64,000 nt of DNA from Pseudomonas phage sp. 30-2. Below the pieces are notes generated by a model, which did not search any database, had not been told where the DNA came from, and was given only the letters and a program-made list of their open reading frames with translations. The position numbers were made by a program, and so were the translations under genes. The stretch lies in sequence record LC727697.1; one strand, 5' to 3'. How positions within the stretch are numbered: position 1 is the stretch's first letter; every line of letters starts with the position of its first letter. Below are positions 10,597 through 50,627 of this stretch, in pieces.

Positions 10597-10753
10597 TCAT
10601 TATACTCTTTAATTTCATAATGACTGTTCCATATGGGTTTAGGATTATTTAAATTAATAAAAACGATGGGTGATGATGATGAATCTATAGTATATATAGA
10701 TAAATGATAATATATCATATGTGCTAAGTGCATCTGTATTTTAAATATGTTTA

Positions 10754-11026
10754 TCATTTATAAAGTTTCATTCTTGGGTTATTAATCCATCTAATATAAC
10801 TGTTATGTAAATGATTTATTCTATTAGAATAATCACTTAGATTATTAGTTATTTTAGTTGTTTCCTTATGTACTTTAAAATGAAATATGAAAGATGAAAT
10901 ACTACCATACTCTGTCGGTACTTCGAATCTAATTATAATTGATGTTGTTTTGTCCTGCAGATTTTCCATGATGATTTCGAGATATTGATACATGGAACAT
11001 AGTTTACATAGTTTAGTCATGTGCAT
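10754..11026 (-). CDS. hypothetical small protein
   Basis: ORF. Confidence 0.4.
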   Translation of the reverse strand: MHMTKLCKLCSMYQYLEIIMENLQDKTTSIIIRFEVPTEYGSISSFIFHFKVHKETTKITNNLSDYSNRINHLHNSYIRWINNPRMKLYK

Positions 11027-11235
11027 GATTTTAAGAACCTAGAATAGCTTAATATCTCGTAGTTGGATACATTCGCACATAACACTATGTTTACTTTTTT
11101 TACTAATACTTTGAATATGTCATTAACACTGAAATCGCCATACGCATCTTTAGTGTCATAGGTTATTCCACAGTTTGGTTCTTGCCAAAATGCCGGCGAA
11201 GGACCGGCATCTGTACACATAACAAATATTCTCAT
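11017..11235 (-). CDS. hypothetical small protein
   Basis: ORF. Confidence 0.4.
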   Translation of the reverse strand: MRIFVMCTDAGPSPAFWQEPNCGITYDTKDAYGDFSVNDIFKVLVKKVNIVLCANVSNYEILSYSRFLKSCT

Positions 11236-11239
11236 TTAA

Positions 11240-11455
11240 TTAGTATTGTTTCTTTATTTTATAAAGGGCTGCTGTGCAGTAGTGAGATAGTACGCGGATG
11301 GCGTCGTCGGCAGTGCAATTTTCGTGGCGTGCAACATACTCGCCCTCGTTAGGTTGTTGGCCAACCTCATATCTACCATCGTCGCGATATTTCCTTACTT
11401 GTACAGTATAAGTAGGATATTCGAGTTCGGCAATTATATCGAAATGTTTGTTCAT
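11240..11455 (-). CDS. hypothetical small protein
   Basis: ORF, locally GC-richer. Confidence 0.45.
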   Translation of the reverse strand: MNKHFDIIAELEYPTYTVQVRKYRDDGRYEVGQQPNEGEYVARHENCTADDAIRVLSHYCTAALYKIKKQY

Positions 11456-11799: not shown

Positions 11800-11889
11800 T
11801 GGCAGATACTGTAGGATTCGAACCTACGGAGCTTTTTCAAACTCACTTCCTTAGCAGGGAAGCACCTTAAGCCACTCGGTCAAGTATCT
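11800..11889 (-). tRNA. tRNA-Ser (anticodon GCU), CCA encoded
   Basis: Cloverleaf read by hand: acceptor AGATACT/AGTATCT, anticodon loop CTGCTAA, long variable arm, T-loop GTAGG-TTCGAAT-CCTAC. Confidence 0.85.
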
Positions 11890-11894
11890 ATATT

Positions 11895-11984
11895 TGGCGG
11901 AGAGGGTGGGATTCGAACCCACGGGACCTTTCGATCCGCTAGTTTTCAAGACTAGTATAATAAACCAGACTCTATCACCTCTCC
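11895..11984 (-). tRNA. tRNA-Ser (anticodon UGA), CCA encoded
   Basis: acceptor GGAGAGG/CCTCTCC, anticodon loop CTTGAAA, long variable arm, T-loop TTCGAAT. Confidence 0.85.
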
Positions 11985-11998
11985 AAAACTAGTTAATT

Positions 11999-12358
11999 CT
12001 ATTCGTAAATTATTCTACAATGTTGTTTTCCTGCAACTCTATCTAAATAACCAAGTCTAGCTAAAATAGCTGGAGCTACATTATTATATTCATCTATAAA
12101 AGATTTAGGAACATTATATAAGTATGCACTTTGGTCATTATCGAATTCTTTACAAAAGATACCATAAAAGTGCGGAACATAGGGATTATCTTCGAATTCC
12201 TTATTTTCTAAAATCTTATCTTCTAAATACGCATCATTTGCAAATAATCTAATATTTTTATTTATTTTATTAGATTCGTATTCCGAGTCTTCGTATATAA
12301 TTTTTGCATCGGCAGTAGGAAGATATATTCCGTATACAATTTGAATTTTGGAAATCAT
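11999..12358 (-). CDS. hypothetical protein within tRNA region
   Basis: 119-aa ORF. Confidence 0.45.
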   Translation of the reverse strand: MISKIQIVYGIYLPTADAKIIYEDSEYESNKINKNIRLFANDAYLEDKILENKEFEDNPYVPHFYGIFCKEFDNDQSAYLYNVPKSFIDEYNNVAPAILARLGYLDRVAGKQHCRIIYE

Positions 12359-13170
12359 TTAAAATTCTCTTTTGTTATTTTATGCACTTATTATACGAAA
12401 TAATTATACTTTTGTCAAATGTTATTTTGTATATTTAAAAGAAATCATCATAAGAATGTACTACAAGTATATATTTTTCTTATTAAATATCCGTCGGGAT
12501 CTATTATAAAAATATTCAAATGCTTTGAATAAAAAACACCATTAAAAAAGTAAGTAGGGGATATTCGTATAATACCTTCGTTAGCATTAATAGATATCCT
12601 AAATATGTTTTCCATAAATCCACACCGTTATTATGTGTATTTATGGTTTTATTTCTATTTAGAATAGTTATTATAATAGATATATAATGGTTATTTAAAG
12701 GTAAGTCAATTTATAAAATAATAGATAAGCTAAAAATATTTGCATGCAATTAAAAAATCAGTTGTTTTATCTACAACATATATTTCTAATTGTTTTCTAT
12801 TGCTTGTCGGTTTAGTTTTTATCGAAACACATATAGATTTTGTATAAGACAACCTAGAAATGCTATATACATTTTCACGAAAAATAGACAAATCGAGTCT
12901 AAATATGCAACCTGCCATTTAATGTTGGTTCCTTAAACAGAACAATATCAATTTATATTTTTATTCTATCTGTCTAAAAACCATAAAGCATAATTTCCTA
13001 TATTAGGAAGGTATAAACATAAACAATGAGATTTTCTTACATACAATAACTCTGTTGTGTATGCCTGTATTTCCAGCACCGTTATATTAGATGGTATAAC
13101 TAATACTTCCATATTTATCCACTACACGAATCATCGAATAGATATACCAATCAATTATATTAGAATATTG

Positions 13171-13243
13171 AGCAGCCCACGGGACTCGAACCCGTAACAT
13201 CTGACTTGGAAGGACAGTGCTCTACCAATTGAGCTAGGACTGC
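13171..13243 (-). tRNA. tRNA-Gly (anticodon UCC, probable), no encoded CCA
   Basis: acceptor GCAGTCC/GGGCTGC (one GU), D-arm GCTC-AATTGGTA-GAGC, anticodon loop CTTCCAA, T-loop TTCGAGT. Confidence 0.7.
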
Positions 13244-13252
13244 ATAGTAAAT

Positions 13253-13329
13253 TGGTCTAGGCAGGAGACCTCGAATCCCCAACCTCTTGCTCCCAAAGCA
13301 AGTGCTCTACCTACTTGAGCTATGCCTAG
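13253..13329 (-). tRNA. tRNA-Pro (anticodon UGG), CCA encoded
   Basis: acceptor CTAGGCA/TGCCTAG, anticodon stem CTTGC/GCAAG, loop TTTGGGA, T-loop TTCGAGG. Confidence 0.85.
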
Positions 13330-13338
13330 ATATAAAAC

Positions 13339-13415
13339 TGGTTGCAGGGGTGGGATTCGAACCCACGATAAAAAGGTTATGAGCCTTTCTGCTTAGACCT
13401 CTTGCATACCCTGCG
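13339..13415 (-). tRNA. tRNA-Met, initiator-like (anticodon CAU, C1-A72 mismatch, A73)
   Basis: 5' CGCAGGG vs 3' CCCTGCA leaves C1:A72 unpaired as in bacterial tRNA-fMet; anticodon loop CTCATAA; 3' end ...CCCTGCAACCA resembles E. coli tRNA-fMet. Confidence 0.7.
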
Positions 13416-13438
13416 ATAAAACTATATTGTTATATTAT

Positions 13439-13771
13439 TTACCATTTTAAATTTTTAATCTGAGAAAAATCAAATTCCGGAAGTATGCATTTATCGTCTA
13501 GATAATCTTGCATAATCTTTACATCATCAGGCGAACACGAACCTGTACTAGATTGCCACAGGCTCATTATATCTTTCGAATACATAGATCCACGACTATG
13601 TATTCCGTATCTACAGTGCATATTGTCTTTTACTATGCCAACTCTTGCTTTTCCGGCATCGAAATAAACAATATTATATATTCCGTCTATATATGAAATT
13701 AGACGTGCATTTTTTCTATTGTTACGCTTTATCCATTTTAGAACATCTGTATCATTAGAATAATTATTCAT
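13439..13771 (-). CDS. hypothetical protein
   Basis: ORF between tRNAs. Confidence 0.45.
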   Translation of the reverse strand: MNNYSNDTDVLKWIKRNNRKNARLISYIDGIYNIVYFDAGKARVGIVKDNMHCRYGIHSRGSMYSKDIMSLWQSSTGSCSPDDVKIMQDYLDDKCILPEFDFSQIKNLKW

Positions 13772-13799
13772 TATTTGAGGTACTCTTATATATACATGT

Positions 13800-14042
13800 T
13801 TATTCTAAAATTATTTTCCCTTTACCGTATAATTCTGTATTATACCAAGCTACAGAGTATAAGTAAATAGAATTATATTTAATATCGAATATGTATATTC
13901 CGCTAGTATCAGTTCTAATACTGAATGCTTGTTGTTGAAGCCAAAATAATTTTATTTGTAACGATAACTCTTTGCATTTCCTACAAGTCGATGTATGCTT
14001 TTTGATTGTTCTGTATTGTAGATGTTCTTTGCATCTATTCAT
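13800..14042 (-). CDS. hypothetical small protein
   Basis: ORF. Confidence 0.35.
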   Translation of the reverse strand: MNRCKEHLQYRTIKKHTSTCRKCKELSLQIKLFWLQQQAFSIRTDTSGIYIFDIKYNSIYLYSVAWYNTELYGKGKIILE

Positions 14043-14310
14043 ATTATTAATATAAATTTTTATACTATAATATTTTTATAGCGAGTCCAGCCTACTAAAC
14101 AGGTATTGTGCAGATTGTAGTTCGAATCAATTCCGATTAATACTCGTCCTATATAATTTTTTCGTAAGTTTAGCTGACCTGGACTGATCCGAGTTTTTCT
14201 GCACACTTCAAATATATCTTTACCTATACAACAGAAACCTTGTTTCATACTATAACGAAGAAGTCTTATGTCAAATCTTATTGTTTGCATAACACAACAC
14301 TCTTTAAAAT

Positions 14311-14387
14311 TGGCGCGCCCGGAGGGATTCGAACCCCCGACCATCCGCTTAGAAGGCGGATGCTCTATCCAGCTGAGCTACGAGCGC
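14311..14387 (-). tRNA. tRNA-Arg (anticodon UCU), CCA encoded
   Basis: acceptor GCGCTCG/CGGGCGC, anticodon stem TCCGC/GCGGA, loop CTTCTAA, T-loop TTCGAAT. Confidence 0.9.
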
Positions 14388-15293
14388 ATATCTTGTGCAA
14401 CTAATGATAGCTTTGTAATAATGCTTTGTATGCGTAACATTATATACTGTTTTGTTTGTTCGGTCAACTATTTTTATTAAAATATATATCTATACAATTA
14501 AGTAATGATCGACGTAACATTTATGAAAATAACTACCACTATTTATTAAGTATAAAGCTATTACGGATTTCTCACAAAAAGTATTTTTACTGACTACAAA
14601 CCCTTTGTAGATTTTTGCATGACATACGATGCGTTCTAAATAGTACGAATAGGAAAAAATACAGTTCATTATCATCATCTTAGCCGTACAATATAACAAT
14701 TCTTATCTAGCCGAACATACCATACTATTTCGCCAGAATAAACACAAACTATGGATTCCGACCATTTTAATAACGACAATTTACATATCAATGTTTTATG
14801 CGAAATAGTTAAAATTTTTTCCATTCTTTATTCTATGTAATAAAGTTAATAAGAAATACTAAGTATACCGCAATATCGATAATAAACAGAATTGCTATAT
14901 ATTATCTAAGCACTTCCGGTATTTGTTACAATAAAAATATTATGTATTATAGAATATAACGGAACATCGGATGCAAATAGTATCTTATCTTAAATATCAT
15001 AGTAATAGAAAGGATAGTAACAGATCTATTATCGCATAACGATATTATGTTGAAACAAGGCATGTATATTACTTCTGTTGAGTATTGTAAATTAATAATG
15101 TATTTCATTTTTTAATTCTATATTGCATTGTATTTCCATGCCATAGAAAATGTACCGATATCAAAATGTACCCATAATGTAAAAGATCTATTATTTTTTA
15201 TAGTGACTACTAACTTGTTTAATACGCGATATTCTATTACGTATGTGTTGGCAGATATATGCATTATTTCATTCATAATAAAAATATCATAAT

Positions 15294-15326
15294 AAAAAAG
15301 GAACATACCATAATATGTTCCTTTTG
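15294..15326 (-). terminator. rho-independent terminator inside tRNA cluster
   Basis: aaaaaaggaacataccataatatgttccttttg hairpin flanked by A/T runs. Confidence 0.6.
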
Positions 15327-15334
15327 TAGGAGTT

Positions 15335-15419
15335 TGGTGCCCGGTGCCAGACTCGAACTGGCACGACTTTCGTCGGGAGATTTTAAGTCTCCTGTGTCTA
15401 CCGATTTCACCAACCGGGC
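15335..15419 (-). tRNA. tRNA-Leu (anticodon UAA), CCA encoded
   Basis: acceptor GCCCGGT/ACCGGGC, anticodon stem GGAGA/TCTCC, loop CTTAAAA, long variable arm. Confidence 0.85.
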
Positions 15420-15469
15420 ATATTCATTCATTATATAGTTTAAGTATAGTTTGATTTGTATATAAAAAT

Positions 15470-15546
15470 TGGTGGGACTTACTGGATTCGAACCAGTGAC
15501 CTAGCGATTATGAGTCGCGCGCTCTAACCAACTGAGCTAAAGTCCC
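15470..15546 (-). tRNA. tRNA with CAU anticodon: elongator Met or Ile2 (lysidine) candidate
   Basis: acceptor GGGACTT/AAGTCCC; body GCTCAGTTGGTTAGAGC-GCGCGA-CTCATAA-TCGCT closely resembles E. coli tRNA-Ile2. Confidence 0.8.
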
Positions 15547-15615
15547 GTTTGAAACATTATATGAATATTTTATTTAGACTATTGTATCTCTTTAGATACA
15601 AATGTTATTTAAAAT

Positions 15616-15691
<76 letters not shown>

Positions 15692-15717
15692 ATATTGAAT
15701 ATACAACAAAGTGTAAT

Positions 15718-15793
15718 TGGCTGGCTAGGTAGGACTCGAACCTACGACCCAATGATTAACAGTCATTTGCTCTACCGACTGAGCTACTAGCCA
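15718..15793 (-). tRNA. tRNA-Asn (anticodon GUU), CCA encoded
   Basis: acceptor TGGCTAG/CTAGCCA, anticodon stem AATGA/TCATT, loop CTGTTAA, T-loop GTAGG-TTCGAGT-CCTAC. Confidence 0.85.
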
Positions 15794-15843
15794 TTTAATT
15801 TTAGAATAGTTTCCTATCTTGTTAAGTATTTATATCTTTTGTT

Positions 15844-15928
15844 TGGTACCCGAGACCGGACTCGAACCGGTACGCTGCGAAGCGGGAGATTTTAAGTCTC
15901 CTGTGTCTACCAATTTCACCACTCGGGC
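15844..15928 (-). tRNA. tRNA-Leu (anticodon UAA), second diverged copy
   Basis: same D-arm and anticodon arm as 15335..15419 but different acceptor stem (GCCCGAG) and variable arm. Confidence 0.85.
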
Positions 15929-15950
15929 TAAAAGCACAACATCTTAAAAT

Positions 15951-16027
15951 TGGTCCCTCGAACTGGATTCGAACCAGTGACCTAGCGATTATGAGTCGCG
16001 CGCTCTAACCAACTGAGCTACCGAGGG
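15951..16027 (-). tRNA. tRNA with CAU anticodon: Ile2 (lysidine) or elongator Met candidate
   Basis: body identical to 15470..15546 between positions 8 and 65; acceptor stem CCCTCGG/TCGAGGG differs. Confidence 0.8.
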
Positions 16028-27694: not shown

Positions 27695-27823
27695 ACTATA
27701 TATCCTATTATGAAAATATAATTACAGAAACGACTAATATTTTACATTAATTATTATATTCAAAAATACATGATTGCAGGCAACATTCAACTAAAAATGT
27801 CATTTATTGTTTATTTCTTATAT

Positions 27824-27852
27824 AAAATAAGGGACATAAAGTCCCTTATTTT
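27824..27852. terminator. rho-independent terminator
   Basis: aaaataagggacataaagtcccttatttt. Confidence 0.7.
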
Positions 27853-27880
27853 ATATAAACCGAGCGCACTCGCCGCCGGT

Positions 27881-28240
27881 TTAGTCGTCAGTGTCGAACT
27901 CGAACTGATCGTCGCCGTGTTGAAGCTTGAGCATCATAATGTGCTCTTTCGGCACCCGGTCGCCGACGGCTTTTTCGTATTCATCCCAGGTGCGGATGAT
28001 GTCACCGTCCACTGCCCATGCGTTTTTCTTTTTCCCGTTGATGTGGGTGGCCGGACCGAGCAAGCGGTGCATGTTGCCCTGAATGTTCAGCCACACCTTG
28101 TTGCCGTCCTTGTCAACGATGCAGTAGGAGTCGATTTCCTGGAGAACGTATTCGGTTACGCCGCCGACTTGACCATCGACGACCTTCGAGTGCTCGGGAA
28201 ATTCTGCCAGTGCCCATGCTTCTTCGTAGCTTTTTGCCAT
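27881..28240 (-). CDS. hypothetical acidic protein encoded by an about 60%-GC island
   Basis: protein-like minus-strand frame with GAGAGG SD; the overlapping plus-strand 169-aa ORF is Val/Leu-rich antisense noise. Confidence 0.6.
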   Translation of the reverse strand: MAKSYEEAWALAEFPEHSKVVDGQVGGVTEYVLQEIDSYCIVDKDGNKVWLNIQGNMHRLLGPATHINGKKKNAWAVDGDIIRTWDEYEKAVGDRVPKEHIMMLKLQHGDDQFEFDTDD

Positions 28241-28314
28241 TGCAAATTACCTCTCGGTTGTATTAATGTTGTTTGTTAAGCTTCTTAGCTTGATATACAG
28301 TATAGCGCAAAATA

Positions 28315-41327: not shown

Positions 41328-41930
41328 ATGGATACTTTGATACTTAACAAAGACGGTAATCCGTTATGCATGTTACCATTATCTGTTGTAGACTGGCAAA
41401 CTAGTATTAAATTAGTATCGCTTGGCAAGGTCGAAATTTTAAAAAATTACGACAATTGGGAAGTTAATTCTCCCAGTATTACTATGAAGGTTCCGTCTAT
41501 TGTAATGTCAACTGAATACATTAAATGGAATCATAAAACAAAGTTTTCCAGAAACAACGTATATTTAAGGGATAACTATCAGTGTCAGTTTTGTTTTAGA
41601 ACGTTTCCTGTTAAACAGCTAACACTAGATCATGTTTTACCTAAGAGATACGGTGGTAAGACAAATTGGACTAATATATGTACTGCATGCAAAGTTTGCA
41701 ATAACAAAAAAGGCGATAACAAGAATATTATTCCCATTAAAATGCCACATAGACCTACTTATTATGAACTTGTTTCTCGTAGGCAACAATTACCTATTTT
41801 AATAAGAGATAGTGATTGGAAATTTTATTTGCCGTGGGATTCAAACTTAATAATTATTACTGATAAAAAATGTATATCAGAAATTGAATCGAGCCCGACA
41901 CACAATTACGGAGAAATGTTAAATGGCTAA
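41328..41930 (+). CDS. HNH endonuclease
   Basis: LDHVLPKRYGGKTNWTNICTACKVCNNKKG: HNH core with flanking Cys pairs. Confidence 0.75.
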   Translation: MDTLILNKDGNPLCMLPLSVVDWQTSIKLVSLGKVEILKNYDNWEVNSPSITMKVPSIVMSTEYIKWNHKTKFSRNNVYLRDNYQCQFCFRTFPVKQLTLDHVLPKRYGGKTNWTNICTACKVCNNKKGDNKNIIPIKMPHRPTYYELVSRRQQLPILIRDSDWKFYLPWDSNLIIITDKKCISEIESSPTHNYGEMLNG

Positions 41931-42195
41931 GAAAGCTAAAGCTGTAGAAAAAGAAGTTGTAGAAAAAGAAGTTGTAGATCAAGAGAATATGACTGAACAA
42001 GCAAGCGAAGAACCTCGTCTAGGTGTACAAGACATTAAAGATTTACTAACCATAGTTGATGTTGCATGCCAACGCGGAGCATTCCGCGCAGAAGAAATGG
42101 CTAGCGTCGGTGGAGTGTTTAGTAAAGTTAAATCTTTTGTATCAGCAATTGAACCTAAACAAGAAGAGCAAGAAGCTGAAACTGAAGCCAAATAA
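41923..42195 (+). CDS. hypothetical acidic protein
   Basis: ORF, GC-richer than flanks. Confidence 0.5.
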   Translation: MAKKAKAVEKEVVEKEVVDQENMTEQASEEPRLGVQDIKDLLTIVDVACQRGAFRAEEMASVGGVFSKVKSFVSAIEPKQEEQEAETEAK

Positions 42196-42212
42196 TACAC
42201 GGAGATTTCCTA

Positions 42213-42953
42213 ATGAGTCTTAAGCGCCACATAGGGAAAATCGCTAATACCGGAACACGTGTGTATGTCGTGTTCCGGGAATTACCCGATGATCCTACTC
42301 ATTGTTTAGTAGTTGAAATAGATAGACTACCAGACATGTACCAAGATAACCTAAAAACTATAGTTGAAAGTAGAGAAGGACAAAATTCTGTCGATTTGTA
42401 TACTGTCCTAAATAATAAACTTTTAGGTGACGGATTGCCTGCACTTCGTACAATGCATGATCGGTCTTTTTTACGCAAAGTGGAAGTTAGACAGGTTTTT
42501 ATGCAACCGTACCCAGGTACTAATGTTGCTTTAGAACTTATTAATTCTCAGATACGCGAAGCTGCATTAGCAGGTGCCGACCCTGTACATACAGAAACTG
42601 CATCAGTACCTGTAGTTGAAGAATCTATTACTGATAAACAACGAGCAGAAGGTCTTATAGTTCAAGCACGGTTGCTTAAAGAAGAGGCTGATGCAAAGTT
42701 AGAGCTTGCATATTCTTTATGTCCTGAACTAAAACCAGCGCCTGGTCGTCAGCGTGAACTTACAGAAGAAGAACTAGAAGAACGTTACAAAGAGCGCCTA
42801 GAAAAACGTAAGGAAAAGCGCAGGGAAGCTAGGCAGAAACGAGAAGAAGAAAAGGCTAGAGCTTTACTAGAAGAAAGCAAAGCTAAGGCCGTTGAGGAAT
42901 TAGAACTTAAGGTTTCTCAAAAACTTGAGCGCGATTCTACTCGCGCGGAGTAA
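42213..42953 (+). CDS. hypothetical protein with Lys/Glu/Arg-rich coiled-coil C-terminus
   Basis: GGAG SD; GC about 45%. Confidence 0.5.
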   Translation: MSLKRHIGKIANTGTRVYVVFRELPDDPTHCLVVEIDRLPDMYQDNLKTIVESREGQNSVDLYTVLNNKLLGDGLPALRTMHDRSFLRKVEVRQVFMQPYPGTNVALELINSQIREAALAGADPVHTETASVPVVEESITDKQRAEGLIVQARLLKEEADAKLELAYSLCPELKPAPGRQRELTEEELEERYKERLEKRKEKRREARQKREEEKARALLEESKAKAVEELELKVSQKLERDSTRAE

Positions 42954-43194
42954 AATGCAAGAAATAAAAGAAGCTTTAGAAGTAAAGGGCATTAATATTA
43001 TATCCATTGAAGAAACTATGGATAACATTACACTAAAATGTAGATGTAAAGATACTAGTGAAATGATAGAAAAAGTTATTGAAGATGTTGTAATATCTGC
43101 ATTAGATATATATGGCAAGTTTTGTCATGTTAGTGCGACACAACACTTTAATATAGGAGAAGATGCGCTAACACTTGTTTTAGAAAAGCTTTAA
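42925..43194 (+). CDS. hypothetical small protein
   Basis: ORF. Confidence 0.45.
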   Translation: MSAILLARSKMQEIKEALEVKGINIISIEETMDNITLKCRCKDTSEMIEKVIEDVVISALDIYGKFCHVSATQHFNIGEDALTLVLEKL

Positions 43195-43199
43195 CTAAC

Positions 43200-43228
43200 A
43201 AAACAGCCCTAGCTAGGGCTGTTTTTTT
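43200..43228 (+). terminator. rho-independent terminator
   Basis: aaaacagccctagctagggctgttttttt. Confidence 0.75.
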
Positions 43229-43360
43229 GGGCAAAAAATGCACAATTTTGCTTGGTAATAAAACTAACTAATACGCTGCATCGTGTTTGTGTGTGCTATT
43301 AAAACTATGCATTTTTGTATAATTGCTAAATATCTATATGCATAGAACGGAGTAGCATAT

Positions 43361-43681
43361 ATGGCCAAAATCTATCTTAAAAAACTCCCCGAACAGGAGG
43401 GGATTTCGTTTGATATAGAAGAATTTCTGCCTAGCATAAGCTTAGACGATTTACATCTTTCTTATGTAGATTATGTAGAAGTTATTTGTGAAAACGGTTC
43501 TGTTAATAAATTTGACAGACAGTTTATAGGAAATCTAATTAAGAGCAAAAAAGATGAACGGTTGTCTAAGTTAGGCAAAATAGAGGCTATTTTTATCTAC
43601 TTAGATATGATTAAACTAGAATCTGAATACCAGGAAGCATATCACAATATGCTATGTACTATTCATGCAAAAATAGAATAA
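43361..43681 (+). CDS. hypothetical protein
   Basis: GGAG SD. Confidence 0.5.
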   Translation: MAKIYLKKLPEQEGISFDIEEFLPSISLDDLHLSYVDYVEVICENGSVNKFDRQFIGNLIKSKKDERLSKLGKIEAIFIYLDMIKLESEYQEAYHNMLCTIHAKIE

Positions 43682-43691
43682 TTGATTAAAA

Positions 43692-43717
43692 TAAAAGGGC
43701 GTTAAGCCCTTTTATTT
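43692..43717 (+). terminator. rho-independent terminator
   Basis: aaaagggcgttaagcccttttatttt. Confidence 0.7.
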
Positions 43718-43773
43718 TGTAAATTAGTTCTATAATAAATTTATCATAATCTTAATAAAATCTTTATAATATT

Positions 43774-44016
43774 TCAAATTCTCTTTATATATTTTTTGCC
43801 TATTACATATATGCAAGCACAACTGAGTACAATAACGTTTAAGTAAGAAAACCACCACATTTTTATAAATTTATGAAACCGGGTTTGCTTGTGGTTTTGT
43901 TTGTGTAACATACTATATGGAAATAGTGTGCTGTATGATACTACATTGTATAAAAACAATGATAATATGTTTCCTATAACATAAACGAATAGTATAACTG
44001 GAAGATAATGTAACAT
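43774..44016 (-). CDS. small membrane protein
   Basis: two hydrophobic helices. Confidence 0.4.
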   Translation of the reverse strand: MLHYLPVILFVYVIGNILSLFLYNVVSYSTLFPYSMLHKQNHKQTRFHKFIKMWWFSYLNVIVLSCACIYVIGKKYIKRI

Positions 44017-44110
44017 AACATTTTATTGTCTTATTTGACACAAACAAGCATACAATACTGCCCCTGTGCATTAAATACAATGCAAAATAAAAAGCATAGT
44101 AGATGTGCTT

Positions 44111-44197
44111 AAAACACGCAAATTTGCGCTATAGCGCGTTTTGCATGCGTAGTATTAGCTATGTATTGTAAAGCATAAAAACACGCAAATTTGCGCT
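44111..44197. promoter_or_regulatory. 21-bp direct repeat pair (aaaacacgcaaatttgcgcta) each with palindrome GCGCAAATTTGCGC: operator-like
   Basis: copies at 44111..44131 and 44177..44197; additional AGCGCT palindromes nearby. Confidence 0.5.
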
Positions 44198-44254
44198 AAT
44201 TTAGCGCTTATATACAGCTATGCTACAGCGCTTTAAGTAGCTAAAACTAGTCAA

Positions 44255-44286
44255 CAAAAAAGGGGCTTATAAGCCCCTTTTTTGTT
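44255..44286. terminator. bidirectional rho-independent terminator
   Basis: aaaaaaggggcttataagcccctttttt. Confidence 0.75.
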
Positions 44287-44297
44287 TTAACCTACGA

Positions 44298-45482
44298 TTA
44301 TTCGTCGTAGTCGATGGTGATGCCAAACGGTGCAGTTACACCCTTGCGACCGTGGTTTATAAACACGGTATCGCAATAGTTAGGATCGCCGTAGTCATAC
44401 ACTTCCATGTCAGTGAAGAATACCAGCTGATGTGGCGGTTCGGTGAGCGTATCTTTAAGGAAGTTAAACACAGCCACAAAATCGGTACCGCCGCCGCCTT
44501 TGAGGGGATACTCATAGATTTCGTCTGCATTGTCGGGAGTATATTTTCGGAATTCATACACTCTAGTATCAAACGTTAGCACTTGTATGGAAAAGTCACT
44601 AAACTGTTCCATAATTCCTAACACTTCTCCTAAGAAATCCCTTAGCTGAGAAGAGCTAATCGAACCAGAGGCGTCTAGTGCCAAGATAACATCAATTTTG
44701 TCATCGACAATCTGACCCGGCAGAGTCGCACCAGTTCCCCAGCTCTTCCGCGACGGACGAGTCCACATATAGTCGGATTTAATGTGCGACGGAATAGTCT
44801 GGTTTAGCAATTCGCGCCAATCTAGTTTAGGTTCAGTGATGTCACTGATCATCTGACGCACACCTGCCGGAGTGTTGCCGACACCAGCAGCTTTAGCAGC
44901 CTGAAGAACAGCTTCAGTGATCTCGTCCCGAAGAGCAGCTTGCTCATCTGCAGACATAGGGATAGGACCGGATTTGCCAGTGCCGTCGCCGTCTTCATTC
45001 CCGGCACCACCCGGTTCGAGGTGAACGTCGAAGCTATCTTTATCTTTTAGTGACGGATCTTTCTTAATTAGTTCGTAGATCTGGTCAGCGGACATTCCGC
45101 GGTACTTTTCATCAAAGCACGGCTCGCACGTACCCGGACGGTGGATAAGCTTGCCGATCTTCATATCGTGCAATTCGAGGTTGATAACAAAGTCGGCAGC
45201 ACAGTTCCACAGTTTAGGCTCTCTGCTGCCGCGCCGCCCCATGTGGTCGTAGACGACGTGCATTACCTCATGACCGATGAGGAAGATAAGTTCCTTATCG
45301 TCCAAGTCTTCGAGGAACTTGGTATTATAATAAAGATGGCGTCCATCAGTACCGGCAGTAGGGCACCAGTCGTTCGCCTCGACTAGTTTAAGGCGCAGCG
45401 CCAAGGTCCCGAAAAACGGATGGTTCAACAGCAACTGAACACGGGCGCGGATGATGCGTTCTTCTAGGGTTTTAGTGGACAT
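44298..45482 (-). CDS. vWA-domain protein with N-terminal putative metallopeptidase (DUF2201-like) domain, partner of the MoxR ATPase
   Basis: HEVMHVV (HExxH) N-terminal; C-terminal ILALDASGSIS (DxSxS MIDAS); GC about 52% vs about 30% background. Confidence 0.8.
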   Translation of the reverse strand: MSTKTLEERIIRARVQLLLNHPFFGTLALRLKLVEANDWCPTAGTDGRHLYYNTKFLEDLDDKELIFLIGHEVMHVVYDHMGRRGSREPKLWNCAADFVINLELHDMKIGKLIHRPGTCEPCFDEKYRGMSADQIYELIKKDPSLKDKDSFDVHLEPGGAGNEDGDGTGKSGPIPMSADEQAALRDEITEAVLQAAKAAGVGNTPAGVRQMISDITEPKLDWRELLNQTIPSHIKSDYMWTRPSRKSWGTGATLPGQIVDDKIDVILALDASGSISSSQLRDFLGEVLGIMEQFSDFSIQVLTFDTRVYEFRKYTPDNADEIYEYPLKGGGGTDFVAVFNFLKDTLTEPPHQLVFFTDMEVYDYGDPNYCDTVFINHGRKGVTAPFGITIDYDE

Positions 45483-45537
45483 ATAATGCTCCGTTAAAAT
45501 GATATGTTTTGTGTTACGTTACAAGTATAACATTATG

Positions 45538-47046
45538 CTAGCGTACCTGCAATGTATATTTGTAATTGCCGCAATCGTAATATTTTAAATAACCTAAACT
45601 ATCCATTATTTCTGATTCGCTTAGATGTAAATTATTTTTATTAGAAATCTTAGATTTTATGAAATTAGATCTATGATATTTTATGTTGTCTTTTATATAC
45701 CAATAACCTGTATTTCTGTCATTCTTGGTTACATTTGTAAACCCGAGCTGTTTATATAAATTTCCATCTGACCAACACCTGTCTGCATATGTAATAATAG
45801 ATTTAGGGGAATATGTTTTTATGAAATATTTAAGAAGTTTGCTGGCTCCTCCTACAACAGTATTTTTGCTAGCATATCTAAGTAATTCATATTCCTCTTT
45901 TGTATATCTAGATTTCCCAAATGTCATTACGGCTACTAACAAATTCTCATTGTCGTATAGACCTAGTCTTACAGATGATTGACAAGAACCTTGGATGTGA
46001 GTTTCTTCTAAAAAAGTTAAAGATTCGTTAAATGTTATTTCTTTTATGGTTGTATTCCTTGCATATATTCTATCACTACAACCTAAAATAGATTTTAACC
46101 TTGATTTTATTATGTCTTGTTTTGATATCCAATCTACATCTAAAATTTGTATTAACTTTATTCCTTTATCTCTGCATTCTATAAATTTATCTACATGATA
46201 TGATTTTTTTCTGTGTTTTGTAGAATGCCAATAACAACCATTATATTCTATTGCTATGTTTGTACCTTTAATTACTATATCTAATTCTTTGTTAGATAAT
46301 ATAGATCGGTCATTGTTAATCACATCAAAACCTAGCGATACTATATAGTTAGATATTTCATTTTCGCCGGCAGACTTTGTTAAAGGATTACAAACATTGC
46401 ACCTCGGAGTAGACCCATAATCTACGTGTCCGATTACTATATTTCCGCATGCATTGCATACCCAGTCATACACATTTTTTCTAAAGCACCCTTCGTACTC
46501 GTCTATACTAAACGTAGGGGTGAGTATGTTAGAAAGTCGTTCTACTACTTTTTTATATCCCAATTCCTTTATAGTTCTATGATCTGGCTTTATATGTTTT
46601 TTACTTAATTGCTGTTTTGCAATAATATCTTTTGACTTAGATGGATTATCGACACCGTATTTTTCTATCCAAGTTTTTATCCTTTTTGTTTTCATACTTT
46701 CTTTTCCGGATTGTGTCATGCCTGGATGATTTTTTAAAGACCATTCCATATGGCATTTACATTTACTTTTATTTCCGCAAAATCCGTATTGGGTTTGTTT
46801 TGTATCTTTATTTCGCTTTAGTGTCCGTTTGTTATCATACTTACAGTAAACATTATCAGCCGGATTTAAGTATATATGAATCCTTTCTGTCACAGAAACG
46901 TCGTCACGAAGAAAGGAATTAGTTCGACGAACTAATTCCTCATATATTTCTTTTTTACTTTTTACTACATTTCCTAATGCGTTAGGATTTGTATTTTTTA
47001 TGAGTTCTTTTAATTCTATATCAAAGTTATCCATTATTCGTGCCAA
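45538..47046 (-). CDS. homing-endonuclease-like protein: Zn-finger pairs + Vsr/DUF559-like PD-(D/E)xK nuclease core + C-terminal domain
   Basis: CNACGN..CNVCN; ELDIVI..IAIEYNGCYWHS; paralog of the ORF at 62881..>64000 (IYAR..I.E..F...H.QG, ADRCWSDGNLY blocks). Confidence 0.7.
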   Translation of the reverse strand: MARIMDNFDIELKELIKNTNPNALGNVVKSKKEIYEELVRRTNSFLRDDVSVTERIHIYLNPADNVYCKYDNKRTLKRNKDTKQTQYGFCGNKSKCKCHMEWSLKNHPGMTQSGKESMKTKRIKTWIEKYGVDNPSKSKDIIAKQQLSKKHIKPDHRTIKELGYKKVVERLSNILTPTFSIDEYEGCFRKNVYDWVCNACGNIVIGHVDYGSTPRCNVCNPLTKSAGENEISNYIVSLGFDVINNDRSILSNKELDIVIKGTNIAIEYNGCYWHSTKHRKKSYHVDKFIECRDKGIKLIQILDVDWISKQDIIKSRLKSILGCSDRIYARNTTIKEITFNESLTFLEETHIQGSCQSSVRLGLYDNENLLVAVMTFGKSRYTKEEYELLRYASKNTVVGGASKLLKYFIKTYSPKSIITYADRCWSDGNLYKQLGFTNVTKNDRNTGYWYIKDNIKYHRSNFIKSKISNKNNLHLSESEIMDSLGYLKYYDCGNYKYTLQVR

Positions 47047-47387
47047 GTATAAAATGTGGGTACCTTTTTATATACTATTTTTATAATATCGGCGTCTACA
47101 TACATATTTAATGCATTTATGGCATCGTTTAGTGTTCTAAATCCAAACTCTTTGTCAAACATAACTAAACCAGAATGTGTTATTTTAAAAGAAAGAAATT
47201 TATATTTTATTTCAGGAATATATACATATTCTATATTAGAGGTACCATATATAATTACATTAGCTGAAATCTTTAGTGACTTATTTAATATCTTACATGT
47301 TATTATTCTGAGACTTATATATAGTATAGTCATAACTGTTATTAATGCAGCTATGAAAATAGAATATATAATCTCGCTGACGATCAT
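47034..47387 (-). CDS. TM-anchored small protein, member of 3-gene family
   Basis: one TM helix then KYKFLSFKITHSG region resembling the neighbours. Confidence 0.45.
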   Translation of the reverse strand: MIVSEIIYSIFIAALITVMTILYISLRIITCKILNKSLKISANVIIYGTSNIEYVYIPEIKYKFLSFKITHSGLVMFDKEFGFRTLNDAINALNMYVDADIIKIVYKKVPTFYTWHE

Positions 47388-47842
47388 ATTAATTTTTTCC
47401 TTTTTTTAAACACAACTTTATTATATTCTGTCTCTGTGTATTGTTTATATATATGTTCTACTTCTTTTAGTGCTTTTTCTAATGAATCATACGAACTATG
47501 TATATGTCTTCTTATAGAAAATCTATTTTGTTTTATATTAAAATAAAATATTTCGGACAGCCATATCTTTTTTATAAAATATAATGTAGGTTTACCTTTT
47601 CTTTTTATAGCTTCTATTTCGAATGAAGTAAAATATTTATTTTCAGATATTTCGCAGAGAATCATCAAATAAAACAATATCGCAATCCCGCATATACTGA
47701 CAGACAGTACACATACTATTAAAGGTATTATTACTAGTGCCAGTACGACATGTTCTTGGTATTCTAGAATAATGCATATAGTAATCAATACAGCAAATAA
47801 AGGTACTAATATTAAACATATGTTACTGAACGGAAGTCTCAT
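47384..47842 (-). CDS. TM-anchored protein (3 TM), family member
   Basis: KYFTSFEIEAIKRKG after the TM helices. Confidence 0.45.
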   Translation of the reverse strand: MRLPFSNICLILVPLFAVLITICIILEYQEHVVLALVIIPLIVCVLSVSICGIAILFYLMILCEISENKYFTSFEIEAIKRKGKPTLYFIKKIWLSEIFYFNIKQNRFSIRRHIHSSYDSLEKALKEVEHIYKQYTETEYNKVVFKKRKKLI

Positions 47843-47843
47843 A

Positions 47844-48299
47844 CTACTTAGTACCTTTACTAGATTTTATTACAGTAGTAATGGCGCTGCTCTTTTTATA
47901 TAGCTCAGCTTGGTCTTCATACCTTTGGAATGTGTTAAGTGCCAATGATTCTGAATTAGTATAGAAATTCGCATAAATAGGAAGACAGCAAAAAGAATTG
48001 TCATGAAAATCGTAATAATATGTTTCACCTAATACATTTAATTTTAAAATATATTTTGTTGAGCTCCCTCTTTGCTTGTCTAAAACGACTTCTAGTTTAT
48101 AAAAACTAAATCTCTTTATATAAAAAAATTCTGCTATGATTTTTCTGTATACACAAGAAATTAATGATATAACACACTGATTAGGAACTGCAACAAGCAT
48201 ATAAATTAATGGCACGTTAGTAACATACATATATATTACAGAAAGAATATTTACTAATGTCATTATAATGACAAACAAAGATGAAGTTAGTGTTCTCAT
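47844..48299 (-). CDS. TM-anchored protein, family member
   Basis: KRFSFYKLEVVLDKQRG after the TM helices. Confidence 0.45.
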   Translation of the reverse strand: MRTLTSSLFVIIMTLVNILSVIYMYVTNVPLIYMLVAVPNQCVISLISCVYRKIIAEFFYIKRFSFYKLEVVLDKQRGSSTKYILKLNVLGETYYYDFHDNSFCCLPIYANFYTNSESLALNTFQRYEDQAELYKKSSAITTVIKSSKGTK

Positions 48300-48332
48300 T
48301 CTATAATTCTGTATCCTATTAATATATAAAAT

Positions 48333-48360
48333 AAAAGGGGCTTTAAGCCCCTTTTATTTT
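48333..48360. terminator. rho-independent terminator
   Basis: aaaaggggctttaagccccttttatttt. Confidence 0.75.
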
Positions 48361-48368
48361 GCCCTTAC

Positions 48369-49484
48369 TTAGTTCGAGTCGACAATAAACTTGCCGTACT
48401 CTTGGAAGAACTTAGTGAAGCAAGGGATCAACTTTCTGTTGATCGGCAGTTGGTATTCGCGCAACGCAGTACGCGCGCCGAGGATGACCATTTCTTGGGC
48501 AAAGTTGTTCATCATGTACTCGAAGAACAAGTTTACCGACTTGTGCCAATCCTCGGTAGTGTACTTTTTGTCGGCGTCAGCTACGTCAGCCAGCCACTCT
48601 TTTAGAGTGTAGCACATACTGACCACGAGCGAGTAACGAGCACTGATCTCTTCGACTTTGAGATCGGTTACCCGGCCGGTTAGCACATCTTCCGGCTTCG
48701 GAAGCTGCGAAGCATACTTCATGTGCTGCATGAAGGAGTAGCTGTGACTTTCGCCGACGGTTCCTGCGATAGTCGCACGTAGCAGGTGGTCCTTGTTGAT
48801 TCCTGCGAGCTGGAGGATGTCGGACACGAACTTCCAGGCTCGCGGAGTAGCAAACGCCTTGCTACGATCTTGGGGATCGAAGCAGAACAGGTTCTGCTTG
48901 TGCTGAGTGAGGTAGCCGACTACATCCGGGTGTACCGTGTTGTTAAGCGCCCACTGCTGCCAGTCCTCGAAGTTGGTTTCGATCTGCAAGTGAACGAAAC
49001 GGTTGGCCAACGGACTAGGCATACGATAAGTAACGCCCTTGTCGGTATCGCGGTTACCAGCAGCGACAATGTCGACGCCATCGGGCAGCTTATACGAACC
49101 GATGGCACGGTTCAGGATGAGCTGATATGCAGCGCCCTGCACGCTCGCCGGCGCCGAGTTCATTTCGTCCAGGAACAGGATGGCGTTGTCCAGGGTAGTT
49201 TCGCCGGGTTGCGGAAGATCGGACGGAATAGCCCAGCGCATGGTATTGGTTTTCGGATCGTAGTACGGAATGCCCTTAATATCAGTGGGATCCATGAGGA
49301 TCAGACGCATGTCGATGACCGGACGGTCAGCCTCGAAACCCAACTGGGCGATGATATCCGACTTGCCTACCCCCGGCGGACCCCAGAGGAACACAGGACG
49401 CTTCGCCTTGAACATGCCGCGGATAATTGCAGCACACTCCGTCGGACGAAGATACGTTTCTACGATGTTTTCTTTTTTAGCCAT
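48369..49484 (-). CDS. MoxR-family AAA+ ATPase (AAA_5; CobS/CbbQ/GvpN-like)
   Basis: Walker A GPPGVGKS, Walker B LFLDEMN, VAAGNRDTDKG sensor region; GC about 55%; antisense ORFs on plus strand are artefacts of the GC richness. Confidence 0.85.
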   Translation of the reverse strand: MAKKENIVETYLRPTECAAIIRGMFKAKRPVFLWGPPGVGKSDIIAQLGFEADRPVIDMRLILMDPTDIKGIPYYDPKTNTMRWAIPSDLPQPGETTLDNAILFLDEMNSAPASVQGAAYQLILNRAIGSYKLPDGVDIVAAGNRDTDKGVTYRMPSPLANRFVHLQIETNFEDWQQWALNNTVHPDVVGYLTQHKQNLFCFDPQDRSKAFATPRAWKFVSDILQLAGINKDHLLRATIAGTVGESHSYSFMQHMKYASQLPKPEDVLTGRVTDLKVEEISARYSLVVSMCYTLKEWLADVADADKKYTTEDWHKSVNLFFEYMMNNFAQEMVILGARTALREYQLPINRKLIPCFTKFFQEYGKFIVDSN

Positions 49485-49674
49485 CTATAATGCCTCTGTG
49501 GTTGAATATGTTTTGCTGTTTAACACCTACATTTTACAGCTTGTAGCTTTTAAAACAACACATAATTAACAATTTTTATGAATGCTATTATTTGTTGTTT
49601 TGCAAAGCAGGATGTTATTAAAGCAAATAACTATATAGTTAGTCAACATAGTAAAACGTAATTTTTTAATCATT

Positions 49675-49702
49675 AAAAAAGGGCAATTATAGCCCTTTTT
49701 TC
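49675..49702. terminator. rho-independent terminator
   Basis: aaaaaagggcaattatagcccttttttc. Confidence 0.7.
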
Positions 49703-50238
49703 TTTTTTCTCTTAAAATATTTAGGAAGTCTAAATGTAGGATACCAGCAGGAGCCACGCGGACCGGAATGCCTAGGATAAGCATATCGTTTTCTTTTATC
49801 TTTGCTGTCTTTATATAGTTTAACACCTGTATTATAAAATGATGATCTTTTACTGCTAATTGTTTCTTCCCCGATACAGCGATCATTTCTTTTTTTACAT
49901 GTATTATTTTTATGTTGTTTTGGTTTTCTTTTGTTAAACGAAGAATGAAATATTTCATAATCGGGTGTTTTATTTATAAACCGATAAGATATAGAAACTA
50001 ACTCAGCAACAAACATATAAAATACTTCATTAAGCACAGGGATAGTATCTAAATATTCTGGTTTATTTTGCAATAATTGCATTATTTTGAGAATAATTAA
50101 GAAACTCGCTATAATAGGATTAAAAACTACATTTCCTACTAGTAATATATAAAATGATAGATTCTTAAAATCATACATTTTATTTCTGTGTGTCATCAAA
50201 AACCATTTAATGTAATATTTCATTTTTATACTATTCAT
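49687..50238 (-). CDS. membrane protein with highly basic C-terminal tail
   Basis: N-terminal TM helices; C-terminus KRKRYAYPRHSGPRG...KRKKKKGL. Confidence 0.4.
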   Translation of the reverse strand: MNSIKMKYYIKWFLMTHRNKMYDFKNLSFYILLVGNVVFNPIIASFLIILKIMQLLQNKPEYLDTIPVLNEVFYMFVAELVSISYRFINKTPDYEIFHSSFNKRKPKQHKNNTCKKRNDRCIGEETISSKRSSFYNTGVKLYKDSKDKRKRYAYPRHSGPRGSCWYPTFRLPKYFKRKKKKGL

Positions 50239-50261
50239 GTTCCTTTTTAGATATTTTTCTA

Positions 50262-50627
50262 TTAAATCACATTTGCGATGTAATGGTATTTTAATACTTG
50301 TCTAAGACGATCTGGTATCTCTACAAAGCGAACATAGTTTTTACCATCTTTAGTAATTTCTCCCGATATCATTTTCAATATGGCATCTTCTTTAGTAATT
50401 ATTTCGATTAATTTTTCGTCTAATTTATATTTTGAACCAGAAATTCTTGTTGCCATCTTTAAATCGAAATTATTTAACTTGCTTAGATAACAAATTAAGC
50501 CGGGAGCAAGTACTACTACAGTGTATACCTCTACATCTTTTTTAAAGAAGTTTAGTAGTGTGCAGAACATAAATGTTCCTTTACTTTTTGCCAATTGATT
50601 TAACAATTTCATCAGGTGGATTTTCAC
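50262..50627 (-). CDS. hypothetical protein
   Basis: ORF. Confidence 0.45.
   Translation of the reverse strand: MKIHLMKLLNQLAKSKGTFMFCTLLNFFKKDVEVYTVVVLAPGLICYLSKLNNFDLKMATRISGSKYKLDEKLIEIITKEDAILKMISGEITKDGKNYVRFVEIPDRLRQVLKYHYIANVI

Follow-up and report, generated by a model that had tools for sequence, protein, structure and literature searches.

Given that the jumbo phage genome represented by Pseudomonas phage sp. 30-2 is AT-rich, how did two GC-rich genes of the kind that normally stand side by side come to lie in it, almost 3 kb apart? We addressed this question in the window, by which we mean the whole 64,000-nucleotide stretch of record LC727697.1 that was analysed. The genes, both on the minus strand, encode a MoxR-class AAA+ ATPase (48369..49484) and a von Willebrand factor A (vWA) protein with a putative N-terminal zincin domain (44298..45482); both open reading frames (ORFs) lie exactly where an earlier reading made from the letters of the DNA (the sequence-only reading) had placed them. 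That reading proposed that the pair was acquired horizontally, was then invaded by an AT-rich endonuclease cassette and might serve as a counter-defence system. We think it fairly probable, instead, that the pair is an ancestral phage module interrupted by an insertion and not a foreign island, and that its GC-richness is a codon regime that has been maintained.

The window belongs to a PA5oct-like Pseudomonas jumbo phage of the genus Wroclawvirus. The segment from 43000 to 50500 aligns over its full length, at 98.4–99.2% identity, with ten P. aeruginosa jumbo phages of this genus (PA5oct, MIJ3, Paride, PAC2 and others), and gene order is identical in all ten. PAC2, the closest complete genome (33.2% GC; 250 ORFs of at least 100 amino acids (aa)), served for genome-wide ranking. 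Scanning IMG/VR with the ATPase alignment yielded 80 loci at 48–56% identity, 70 of which hold both genes; individual loci are given L numbers. The nearest relative, L003, is a 12.2-kb metagenomic contig whose ATPase and vWA protein share 70% and 63% aa identity, respectively, with those of the window.

The ATPase and vWA genes share one orientation, ATPase gene first, in all 70 of these related viral loci. The gap between them has a median of 176 bp, is no longer than 260 bp in 53 of the 70 and exceeds 1 kb in 12. The pair is adjacent in RaK2, where it is annotated as N4 Gp24/Gp25-like, a single small ORF separates the two genes in a Pseudomonas N4-like phage, and the gap is below 400 bp in 45 of 64 bacterial loci or loci from metagenome-assembled genomes (MAGs). 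Because the gap is at most 260 bp in 53 of the 70 viral loci, we take adjacency to be the ancestral state. The sequence-only reading had recognized a MoxR–vWA partner pair that is normally adjacent and had looked to related phages for an uninterrupted arrangement; this arrangement is indeed found in most related loci.

The spacer itself helps to explain how the pair could be separated. To judge from their sequences, the genes in relatives are not only adjacent but separately terminated: in the uninterrupted locus L011, a 75-bp spacer consists of a hairpin followed by a TTGACT-N17-TATAAT site, and this terminator-then-promoter layout means that DNA could be inserted there without damage to either gene. 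A scan for sigma-70 promoters was uninformative (25 sites against 27.7 expected). In the window, a terminator-like GC hairpin followed by a T-run (48333..48354, minus strand) lies 15 nt past the ATPase stop, with equivalent hairpins 3' of the ATPase stop in several relatives, and a strong terminator-like hairpin with the core AGGGGCTTATAAGCCCCT (44253..44286, minus strand) lies 3' of the vWA stop. The shared hairpin core, AGGGGCTT(A/T)AAGCCCCT, is present in only two copies in the window (48336–48352 and 44261–44278; none expected by chance), each directly past the stop codon of one of the two GC-rich genes.

In the window, the partner genes are separated by 2,886 bp of AT-rich DNA (45483..48368; 28.5% GC) holding four co-oriented, tightly packed genes. 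One of these is predicted to be a free-standing homing-endonuclease gene (45538..47034, minus strand), encoding 498 aa from the ATG at 47034 or 502 aa from a TTG at 47046. Its product matches phrog_3339, 'homing endonuclease' (E = 1.6e-115), and its nuclease core appears Vsr/I-Bth0305I-like, with all such matches under the curated cut-offs (MTES_1575, 22.5 bits against 38.2; Vsr, 17.9 against 27; TIGR00632). There is also a weak match to DUF7487, the best PDB match is 3R3P (I-Bth0305I, E = 0.1), and the depositors labelled the gene 'Hef-like'. The same genome has four paralogues at 35–43% identity: two follow the major head gene and the tail sheath gene, and two sit within the split genes for a RecA-like protein and the DNA polymerase. 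Because they are found beside or inside other conserved genes, the interpretation of the endonuclease gene as a selfish, multicopy element, and of the interval as an insertion, is well supported by the sequence comparisons. In PAC2 the paralogues occupy 72426–74003, 106678–108294, 123051–124886 and 204330–206012, the last of these at the edge of the window's span.

The same junction has been occupied in other lineages. DUF7487/TnsA-like endonuclease genes lie in the gaps of L010, L013 (1284–2291) and L016 (9273–10259, minus strand), and L010, with endonuclease-type genes at 9455–11446 and 12268–13767, additionally carries a homologue of the window's endonuclease. Given such independent endonuclease genes, the junction is a recurrent landing site. 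The sequence-only reading had called the AT-rich gap with its homing-endonuclease-like gene an insertion, and the four endonuclease paralogues and the independent endonucleases at the junction bear this out. A different kind of content was observed in L025 (9129–14915) and in L028, L029, L030 and L047, where the ATPase–vWA gap measures 5.9–6.8 kb and holds a small biosynthetic cassette with genes for an AMP-binding (adenylation) enzyme, a tryptophan-halogenase-like flavoenzyme and a ketoacyl synthase (ketosynthase).

The remaining three genes of the cassette encode small proteins, each with a hydrophobic N-terminal segment. Nearest the ATPase gene is a putative membrane protein of 151 aa (47844..48299, minus strand), hydrophobic over its N-terminal ~50 aa and carrying a conserved 'KxExx..K(R/Q)(K/R)G..Y.IK' region. 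It is followed by a putative membrane protein of 152 aa (47384..47842, minus strand), a weak paralogue of the first (26% identity over 96 aa), and by a predicted single-transmembrane protein of 117 aa (47034..47387, minus strand) whose gene shares ATGA overlaps with both neighbours. All three had been described as transmembrane-anchored paralogues, a description that holds for the first two; the 117-aa protein, tried as a third paralogue by profile comparison, was ruled out (hhalign probability 0.1%). Outside Wroclawvirus and L003, no homologues of the small membrane proteins were found in a profile search of 5.8 billion proteins or in a hidden Markov model search of 1.84 billion representatives. 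A match to NCBIfam 'MAG0130' was dismissed as compositional (23 bits against 85).

The insertion is old. L003 carries this cassette too, in an unchanged order (ATPase, then proteins of 158, 162 and 117 aa, the endonuclease with 519 aa and 46% identity, and finally vWA), and the sequences thus place the insertion before the split from a relative whose proteins are 63–70% identical to those of the window. Within the genus, the ratio of nonsynonymous to synonymous polymorphism (pN/pS) is 0 for the ATPase gene, 0.03 for the vWA gene, 0.08–0.10 for the endonuclease gene and 0.26 for the small genes (the last compared with MIJ3), values that indicate purifying selection on all six genes. The cassette is unusual only in that an endonuclease travels with three orphan membrane-protein genes and in its long stability; the interruption is otherwise ordinary in an endonuclease-rich jumbo phage.

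Aligned with PAC2 (L001), the window also shows a 2-kb tract (47001–49000) without a single difference, although ~1% of sites differ elsewhere in this region; the tract takes in the three small genes and the greater part of the ATPase gene. The left edge of the tract coincides with the start of the endonuclease gene, and synonymous divergence is 0–0.012 on one side and 0.05–0.06 in the endonuclease and vWA genes. Judging from this pattern, the tract seems to stem from a recent recombination event that had a breakpoint at the endonuclease gene.

If the insertion accounts for the separation of the pair, its composition requires a separate explanation. The GC content is 53.6% in the ATPase gene and 49.4% in the vWA gene, against 31.3% for the window; the contrast that the sequence-only reading had described is real, in a genome of 31–33% GC, while its values of about 55% and about 52% were not exact. 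GC content at third codon positions (GC3) is 0.68 in the ATPase gene and 0.53 in the vWA gene. Among the 250 PAC2 ORFs (median GC3 0.228) the ATPase gene ranks 3rd (robust z 9.8) and the vWA gene 15th (z 6.3), so the excess is far beyond chance.

The excess follows from a distinctive choice of codons. The ATPase gene leaves TTA, ACA, ATA, TCA and CCA unused and AGA and GGA nearly so, and favours CGT/CGC, ATC, TTC, AAC, CAC, CCG, AAG and GGC, as do its orthologues in L003 and L006. The pair as a whole prefers C/G-ending and some T-ending codons, with near-total avoidance of TTA, AGA, GGA, ACA, ATA, TCA and CCA. The avoided codons are those read by the phage's tRNAs and frequent in its other genes: the 12 tRNA genes clustered at 11800–16027 of the window comprise two Leu-UAA, Arg-UCU, Gly-UCC, Thr-UGU, Ser-UGA, Ser-GCU, Pro-UGG, Asn-GUU and three CAU tRNAs, and the phage genome encodes a lysidine synthetase. 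They are also rare in the GC-rich host. A-ending codons of this phage-tRNA type account for 3 of the 153 Leu, Arg, Gly, Thr, Ile, Ser and Pro codons of the ATPase gene (0.020, 3rd lowest of 250) and for a fraction of 0.074 in the vWA gene (8th lowest), the genome median being 0.408. The major head gene likewise has a low fraction (0.118), reached through T-ending codons at a GC3 of 0.29; that it too avoids phage-tRNA codons indicates that codon selection operates in this phage.

The bias extends beyond the genus. GC3 exceeds the flank median for the ATPase gene in 71 of 73 loci and for the vWA gene in 52 of 59, and it is higher in the ATPase gene than in the vWA gene in 54 of 59. The deficit in the effective number of codons (Nc), that is, the bias left over once GC3 is accounted for, amounts to 15.6 in the ATPase gene and 10.8 in the vWA gene, against 6.2 in the flanks. 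Taken over these comparative data, the GC-richness of the pair evidently constitutes a stable codon-usage regime.

We then asked whether the pair bears any mark of horizontal acquisition other than its composition. Flanking synteny is conserved across a large viral clade, with orf97 upstream (50–81% identity) and HNH, orf90 and orf246 genes downstream. The ATPase and the vWA protein give congruent neighbour-joining trees, each of which joins the window to L003 as sister to L006 and L008–L016. The closest homologues outside this lineage are at most 60% identical and lie on viral-type contigs, and no close GC-rich donor was found among isolate phages, 5.8 billion proteins or 185,579 species genomes (one per species). 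Matches in the species genomes were mainly small MAG contigs (46–53% identity), chromosomal copies being mostly from low-GC Campylobacterota (42–50%), with none from Pseudomonas or other GC-rich taxa; the search for a donor lineage that the sequence-only reading had recommended thus returned none.

The relatives also speak to the age of the bias. In L003, whose background is ~40% GC, the ATPase and vWA genes reach GC3 values of 0.80 and 0.69 in the same split layout, an even stronger excess than in the window, and GC3 is raised in the orthologues of L006, L008, L009, L014 and L016 as well. Codon identity at conserved residues of the vWA protein, between the window and L003 or L006, equals the expectation from permutation within amino acids (z 0.4–0.5), and the ATPase shows only a small excess in the same comparison (z 3.4–3.8). 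Saturation is also seen in the flank gene orf97 (81% aa identity), where four-fold-site GC is 0.19 versus 0.42. Since silent sites are saturated and yet the bias has been kept, it has outlasted a complete turnover of those sites.

Polymorphism within the genus points in the same direction. Across nine Wroclawviruses, synonymous polymorphisms in the pair, polarized approximately by the minor allele, comprise 32 GC>AT and 32 AT>GC changes (16:25 in the vWA gene and 16:7 in the ATPase gene), where neutral decay to the genomic equilibrium would give 4:1 to 7.5:1 (P ~1e-7). Measured as a genomic island, the pair has the atypical composition, but it is present in relatives, its trees do not conflict, it has no identified donor and its amelioration is not in progress. 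The claim of horizontal acquisition is therefore not supported, given conserved synteny, congruent trees, the lack of a donor, saturated silent sites and balanced polymorphisms. The high GC content does not testify to a recent transfer; it reflects a maintained codon regime that steers clear of the codons read by the phage's tRNAs. Endonuclease-driven co-conversion was considered as the main cause of the GC-richness and ruled out, because GC3-rich pairs exist without an endonuclease in the gap.

We picture the history of the locus as follows. A free-standing endonuclease gene and three membrane-protein genes would have landed in the spacer, past the terminator of the ATPase gene and short of the start of the vWA gene, where an insertion should harm neither of them. 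The codon regime of the pair may be maintained because selection favours efficient translation with the tRNAs of the host. Several points weigh against this account. The codon regime is not clade-wide, the GC3 of the L010 ATPase gene being only 0.32. The T-ending route taken by the head gene means that expression level alone cannot explain the G/C shift of the pair. The host codon preferences are taken from general knowledge and were not computed, and the minor-allele polarization of the polymorphisms is approximate in strains among which recombination is evident. The neighbourhood of the pair in the window consists of RNase H, deazaguanine and small unknown genes, with no structural genes, and the proposed function and client of the pair come from analogy.

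Some of the same data could be accommodated by an ancient xenologous replacement, in which the ancestor of the clade comprising the window, L003 and L006–L016 obtained the pair from a phage of higher GC content, or had a higher GC content itself, and amelioration was slowed or offset by recombination (possibly through co-conversion by the endonuclease), with no selection on codons. The strongest GC3 excess is limited to this clade, other conserved genes are GC3-rich too in L014 and L016, the window and PAC2 form a mosaic with its breakpoint at the endonuclease start, and the preference of the pair for G/C-ending codons is unlike the T-ending preference of the major head gene. We nevertheless regard such a replacement as unlikely. 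Pairs in L006, L009 and L014 are GC3-rich with no endonuclease in the gap, throughout the clade the Nc deficit exceeds that of the flanks, low-GC3 loci included (in L010, Nc is 38.9 where 53.6 would be expected), and stationary polymorphisms need a continuing force.

A few other genes resemble the pair in composition. A 119-aa ORF at 27881–28240 (minus strand) has 53.9% GC, a GC3 of 0.71 and no phage-tRNA-type codons among 37, and is a third gene with the signature of the pair; no family match was found for it. The PAC2 record annotates an opposite-strand ORF of 169 aa there instead (27770–28279, plus strand), apparently a shadow ORF. GC3 is also above 0.5 in about 13 other ORFs, with 59–61% GC in some of them, which lie at 1–24 kb and 279–282 kb of PAC2 (L088, L093), clustered in a block of small plus-strand genes that is probably an early/terminal-repeat region (PMC7318152). 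These ORFs could be true host-derived imports or further members of a host-codon class. More speculatively, and with little confidence, we suggest that the ATPase gene, the vWA gene, the 119-aa ORF and about a dozen GC3-rich genes make up a distinct translational class that selection keeps on host-type codons and whose translation is thereby independent of the phage tRNAs, and that the endonuclease-linked trio of orphan membrane proteins is functional cargo, acting in exclusion or as a membrane partner of the chaperone. If it exists, a host-codon class could matter before phage tRNAs accumulate or when tRNAs are attacked.

What, then, might the pair do? The ATPase (371 aa) matches AAA_5 at 24 bits, barely over the cut-off of 22, and AAA; its AAA_3 (MoxR) match, at 21 bits, lies under the cut-off of 27. 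It aligns over its full length (residues 11–368) with phrog_1297, 'ATPase' (E = 1.9e-94), and a GPPGVGKS Walker A motif (GxxGxGKS), an hhhhDE Walker B motif, N144 and R154/R162/R215 are invariant among 35 homologues. The AlphaFold2 (AF2) model has a predicted local distance difference test (pLDDT) of 84 and a predicted template modelling score (pTM) of 0.80, and in a Foldseek search of the PDB its matches ranked 1–21 are all NorQ (9QH4–9QHG) or CbbQ (5C3C, 6L1Q), with E values from 3e-8 to 5e-6. Motifs, families and model together identify a MoxR-class (NorQ/CbbQ-like) AAA+ protein of the N4 gp24 family, with NorQ and CbbQ as the nearest solved structures. Homologues occur in 855 isolate phage genomes (N4-like, rV5-like and RaK2-like), at ~25–36% identity outside Wroclawvirus, and tblastn matches land on records annotated as N4 gp24-like.

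The partner (394 aa) belongs to the N4 gp25 family. Its Pfam matches are strong (DUF2201_N, PF13203, E = 8e-43, 147 bits against a cut-off of 23; DUF2201, PF09967, E = 4e-19, 69 bits against 26), so that both domain assignments made in the sequence-only reading stand, that of AAA_5 in the ATPase weakly, and the match to phrog_1314 covers its full length (residues 3–394; E = 1.3e-108). The zincin-like motif HEVMHVVYDH near the N terminus has H71, E72, H75 and H80 invariant among 35–40 homologues, and the metal-ion-dependent adhesion site (MIDAS; DxSxS/T/D) is intact, with D270, S272, S274, T333 and D358 invariant in the same set. In the AF2 model (pLDDT 81) the C-terminal domain adopts a vWA fold, with matches that include the NorD VWA domain and the midasin MIDAS. 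The fold search did not recover a peptidase fold for the N-terminal domain, whose assignment comes from Pfam, the invariant HExxH...H and marginal similarity to M48/MJ1213. As far as conserved residues and families can tell, the partner joins an HExxH zincin domain at its N terminus to a vWA/MIDAS domain. Its gene is labelled differently across the ten Wroclawvirus genomes ('HNH endonuclease', 'homing endonuclease', 'DNA repair ATPase', 'hydrolase' and 'Zn-dependent hydrolase'); those that name an endonuclease are in error, having been taken over from phrog_1314, which is itself mislabelled 'HNH endonuclease'.

By family membership, the pair is thus an instance of the N4 gp24/gp25 family, described bioinformatically and regarded as a putative assembly chaperone. 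By analogy with NorQ–NorD, CbbQ–CbbO and RavA–ViaA, and following Iyer et al., a hexamer of the ATPase would dock the vWA domain, whose MIDAS would grip an acidic residue of a client protein; ATP hydrolysis would remodel the client, with possible cleavage afterwards by the fused zincin peptidase. Most likely, a protein of the phage that is matured or assembled late in infection serves as the client. In the GenBank record of PA5oct, the ATPase orthologue EST35_0335 is flagged as detected with ESI-MS/MS (electrospray ionization coupled to tandem mass spectrometry), which in that study means in purified particles, and the vWA partner is unflagged. We interpret this flag to reflect that the ATPase is made in quantity. 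Gene-level expression data for gp335–gp340 were not found in the main text of the PA5oct paper (PMC7318152).

The inserted genes might themselves contribute to such a machine, as anchors, substrates or regulators, or might be superinfection-exclusion cargo borne by the endonuclease. Small membrane proteins are typical of exclusion functions, as with Imm and Sp of T4. The cassette has stayed intact since a deep split, in the same order and with similar gene sizes; it is under purifying selection, and its genes are translationally coupled and co-oriented with the pair. Against this, most relatives work without such genes, the small proteins are fast-evolving orphans limited to this lineage, and other lineages have unrelated insertions at the same site. 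We therefore consider a dedicated role of either kind improbable, and retain the account of a conserved module interrupted at a tolerant spacer.

A role in counter-defence or host manipulation, in which the pair would capture and degrade a host immune or housekeeping protein, seems more improbable still. Bacterial conflict systems do include couples of vWA and MoxR proteins (PMC7159879), the fused peptidase would be able to destroy a target in the host, and host-adapted codons would suit expression before phage tRNAs accumulate. However, phages of widely differing hosts (N4-like, RaK2-like and many uncultured ones) have this as a core pair, the two are middle genes in N4 (PMC4193335), and the ATPase is found with purified particles; a neighbourhood link to anti-defence genes was not seen. 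PADLOC gave no match for the pair and NCBIfam no defence or anti-defence label. With no VMAP-like component or effector architecture, and with an existing chaperone reading of such pairs (PMC7824862), the conflict-system interpretation advanced by the sequence-only reading finds little to sustain it.

Least probable of all, and largely refuted, is a recent transfer of the pair from a GC-rich donor (the host or a GC-rich phage) with no time for amelioration before an endonuclease cassette invaded, for despite the strong compositional contrast, the presence of other ORFs at 59–61% GC that are possible true imports and a host of 66% GC (PMC7318152), the same split layout and GC3 excess recur in a relative at 63–70% aa identity, synteny is conserved and trees are congruent, the best homologues outside the lineage are viral and at most 60% identical with no GC-rich donor in the genome scan, silent sites are saturated and polymorphisms show no net GC>AT flux.

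Beyond the vWA gene, a block of HNH endonuclease, orf90 and orf246 genes (41328–43681, plus strand) lies on the strand opposite to the pair. The homologous block is found 3' of the vWA gene, on the same strand, in L006, L008, L009, L011, L013, L014 and L016. Its opposite orientation here indicates that the block was inverted in the Wroclawvirus lineage.

Pairs of the N4 gp24/gp25 type, an ATPase with a vWA-peptidase, are among the most widespread conserved phage gene pairs, present in 855 isolate genomes and represented by thousands of metagenomic homologues. To this picture the present locus adds that the pair is ancestral and tolerant of separation, that the ATPase is abundant enough to appear with purified particles, and that the codon usage of both genes is kept away from the tRNAs that the phage itself encodes. 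The phage is a candidate for therapy. The locus also cautions that GC-rich islands in AT-rich phages should not be read as horizontal transfer without checking relatives.

How does the locus compare with known systems? The vWA–MoxR–VMAP ternary conflict systems (Kaur et al. 2020), which occasionally contain metallopeptidase effector domains (PMC7159879), share a MoxR ATPase and a vWA protein with the window. Unlike them, the pair has neither a VMAP nor a diversified effector array, and it occurs as a conserved core pair in lytic phages. No third, VMAP-like component was found across the 70 loci, where only small unrelated ORFs surround the directly adjacent pair.

The bacterial NorQ–NorD, CbbQ–CbbO and RavA–ViaA systems, the source of the analogy for a possible mechanism, share merely 15–16% sequence identity with the phage proteins. 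Relative to them, the window ATPase has an extra C-terminal helical domain of ~110 aa. In the partner, the predicted N-terminal zincin domain replaces the N-terminal regions of NorD and CbbO, and a metalloenzyme client is not evident.

The endonuclease gene resembles the free-standing homing endonucleases of T4-like and jumbo phages, including the Vsr-like I-Bth0305I, in that it sits between conserved genes and has several diverged paralogues, two of which split the DNA polymerase and RecA genes. Its nuclease core may likewise be Vsr-like, the matches lying under curated thresholds, and homing and a cleavage site are predicted. It differs from the known examples in travelling with three membrane-protein genes and in splitting an operon-like pair instead of a single gene. 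'Fractured genes' were reportedly associated with such endonucleases by Dassa and colleagues in 2009.

The closest parallel is the N4 gp24/gp25 family itself (PHROGs 1297 and 1314), which has the same architecture, a MoxR-type ATPase followed by a metallopeptidase–vWA protein, in the same order and orientation. We know of no member of this family with an experimentally shown function. The 14 core genes of N4-like phages include gp24 and gp25 (vWFA), which count as middle genes in N4 itself (PMC4193335). In the group 2.2 jumbo phages, a MoxR ATPase together with a vWA protein bearing an N-terminal metallopeptidase was described by Iyer et al. (2021), who called the two a chaperone and co-chaperone and proposed roles in virion assembly and peptidolytic processing (PMC7824862). 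The pair of the window stands apart from the rest of this family in the 2.9 kb that separate its genes, in its atypical codon regime and in its ~25–36% identity to isolates outside Wroclawvirus.

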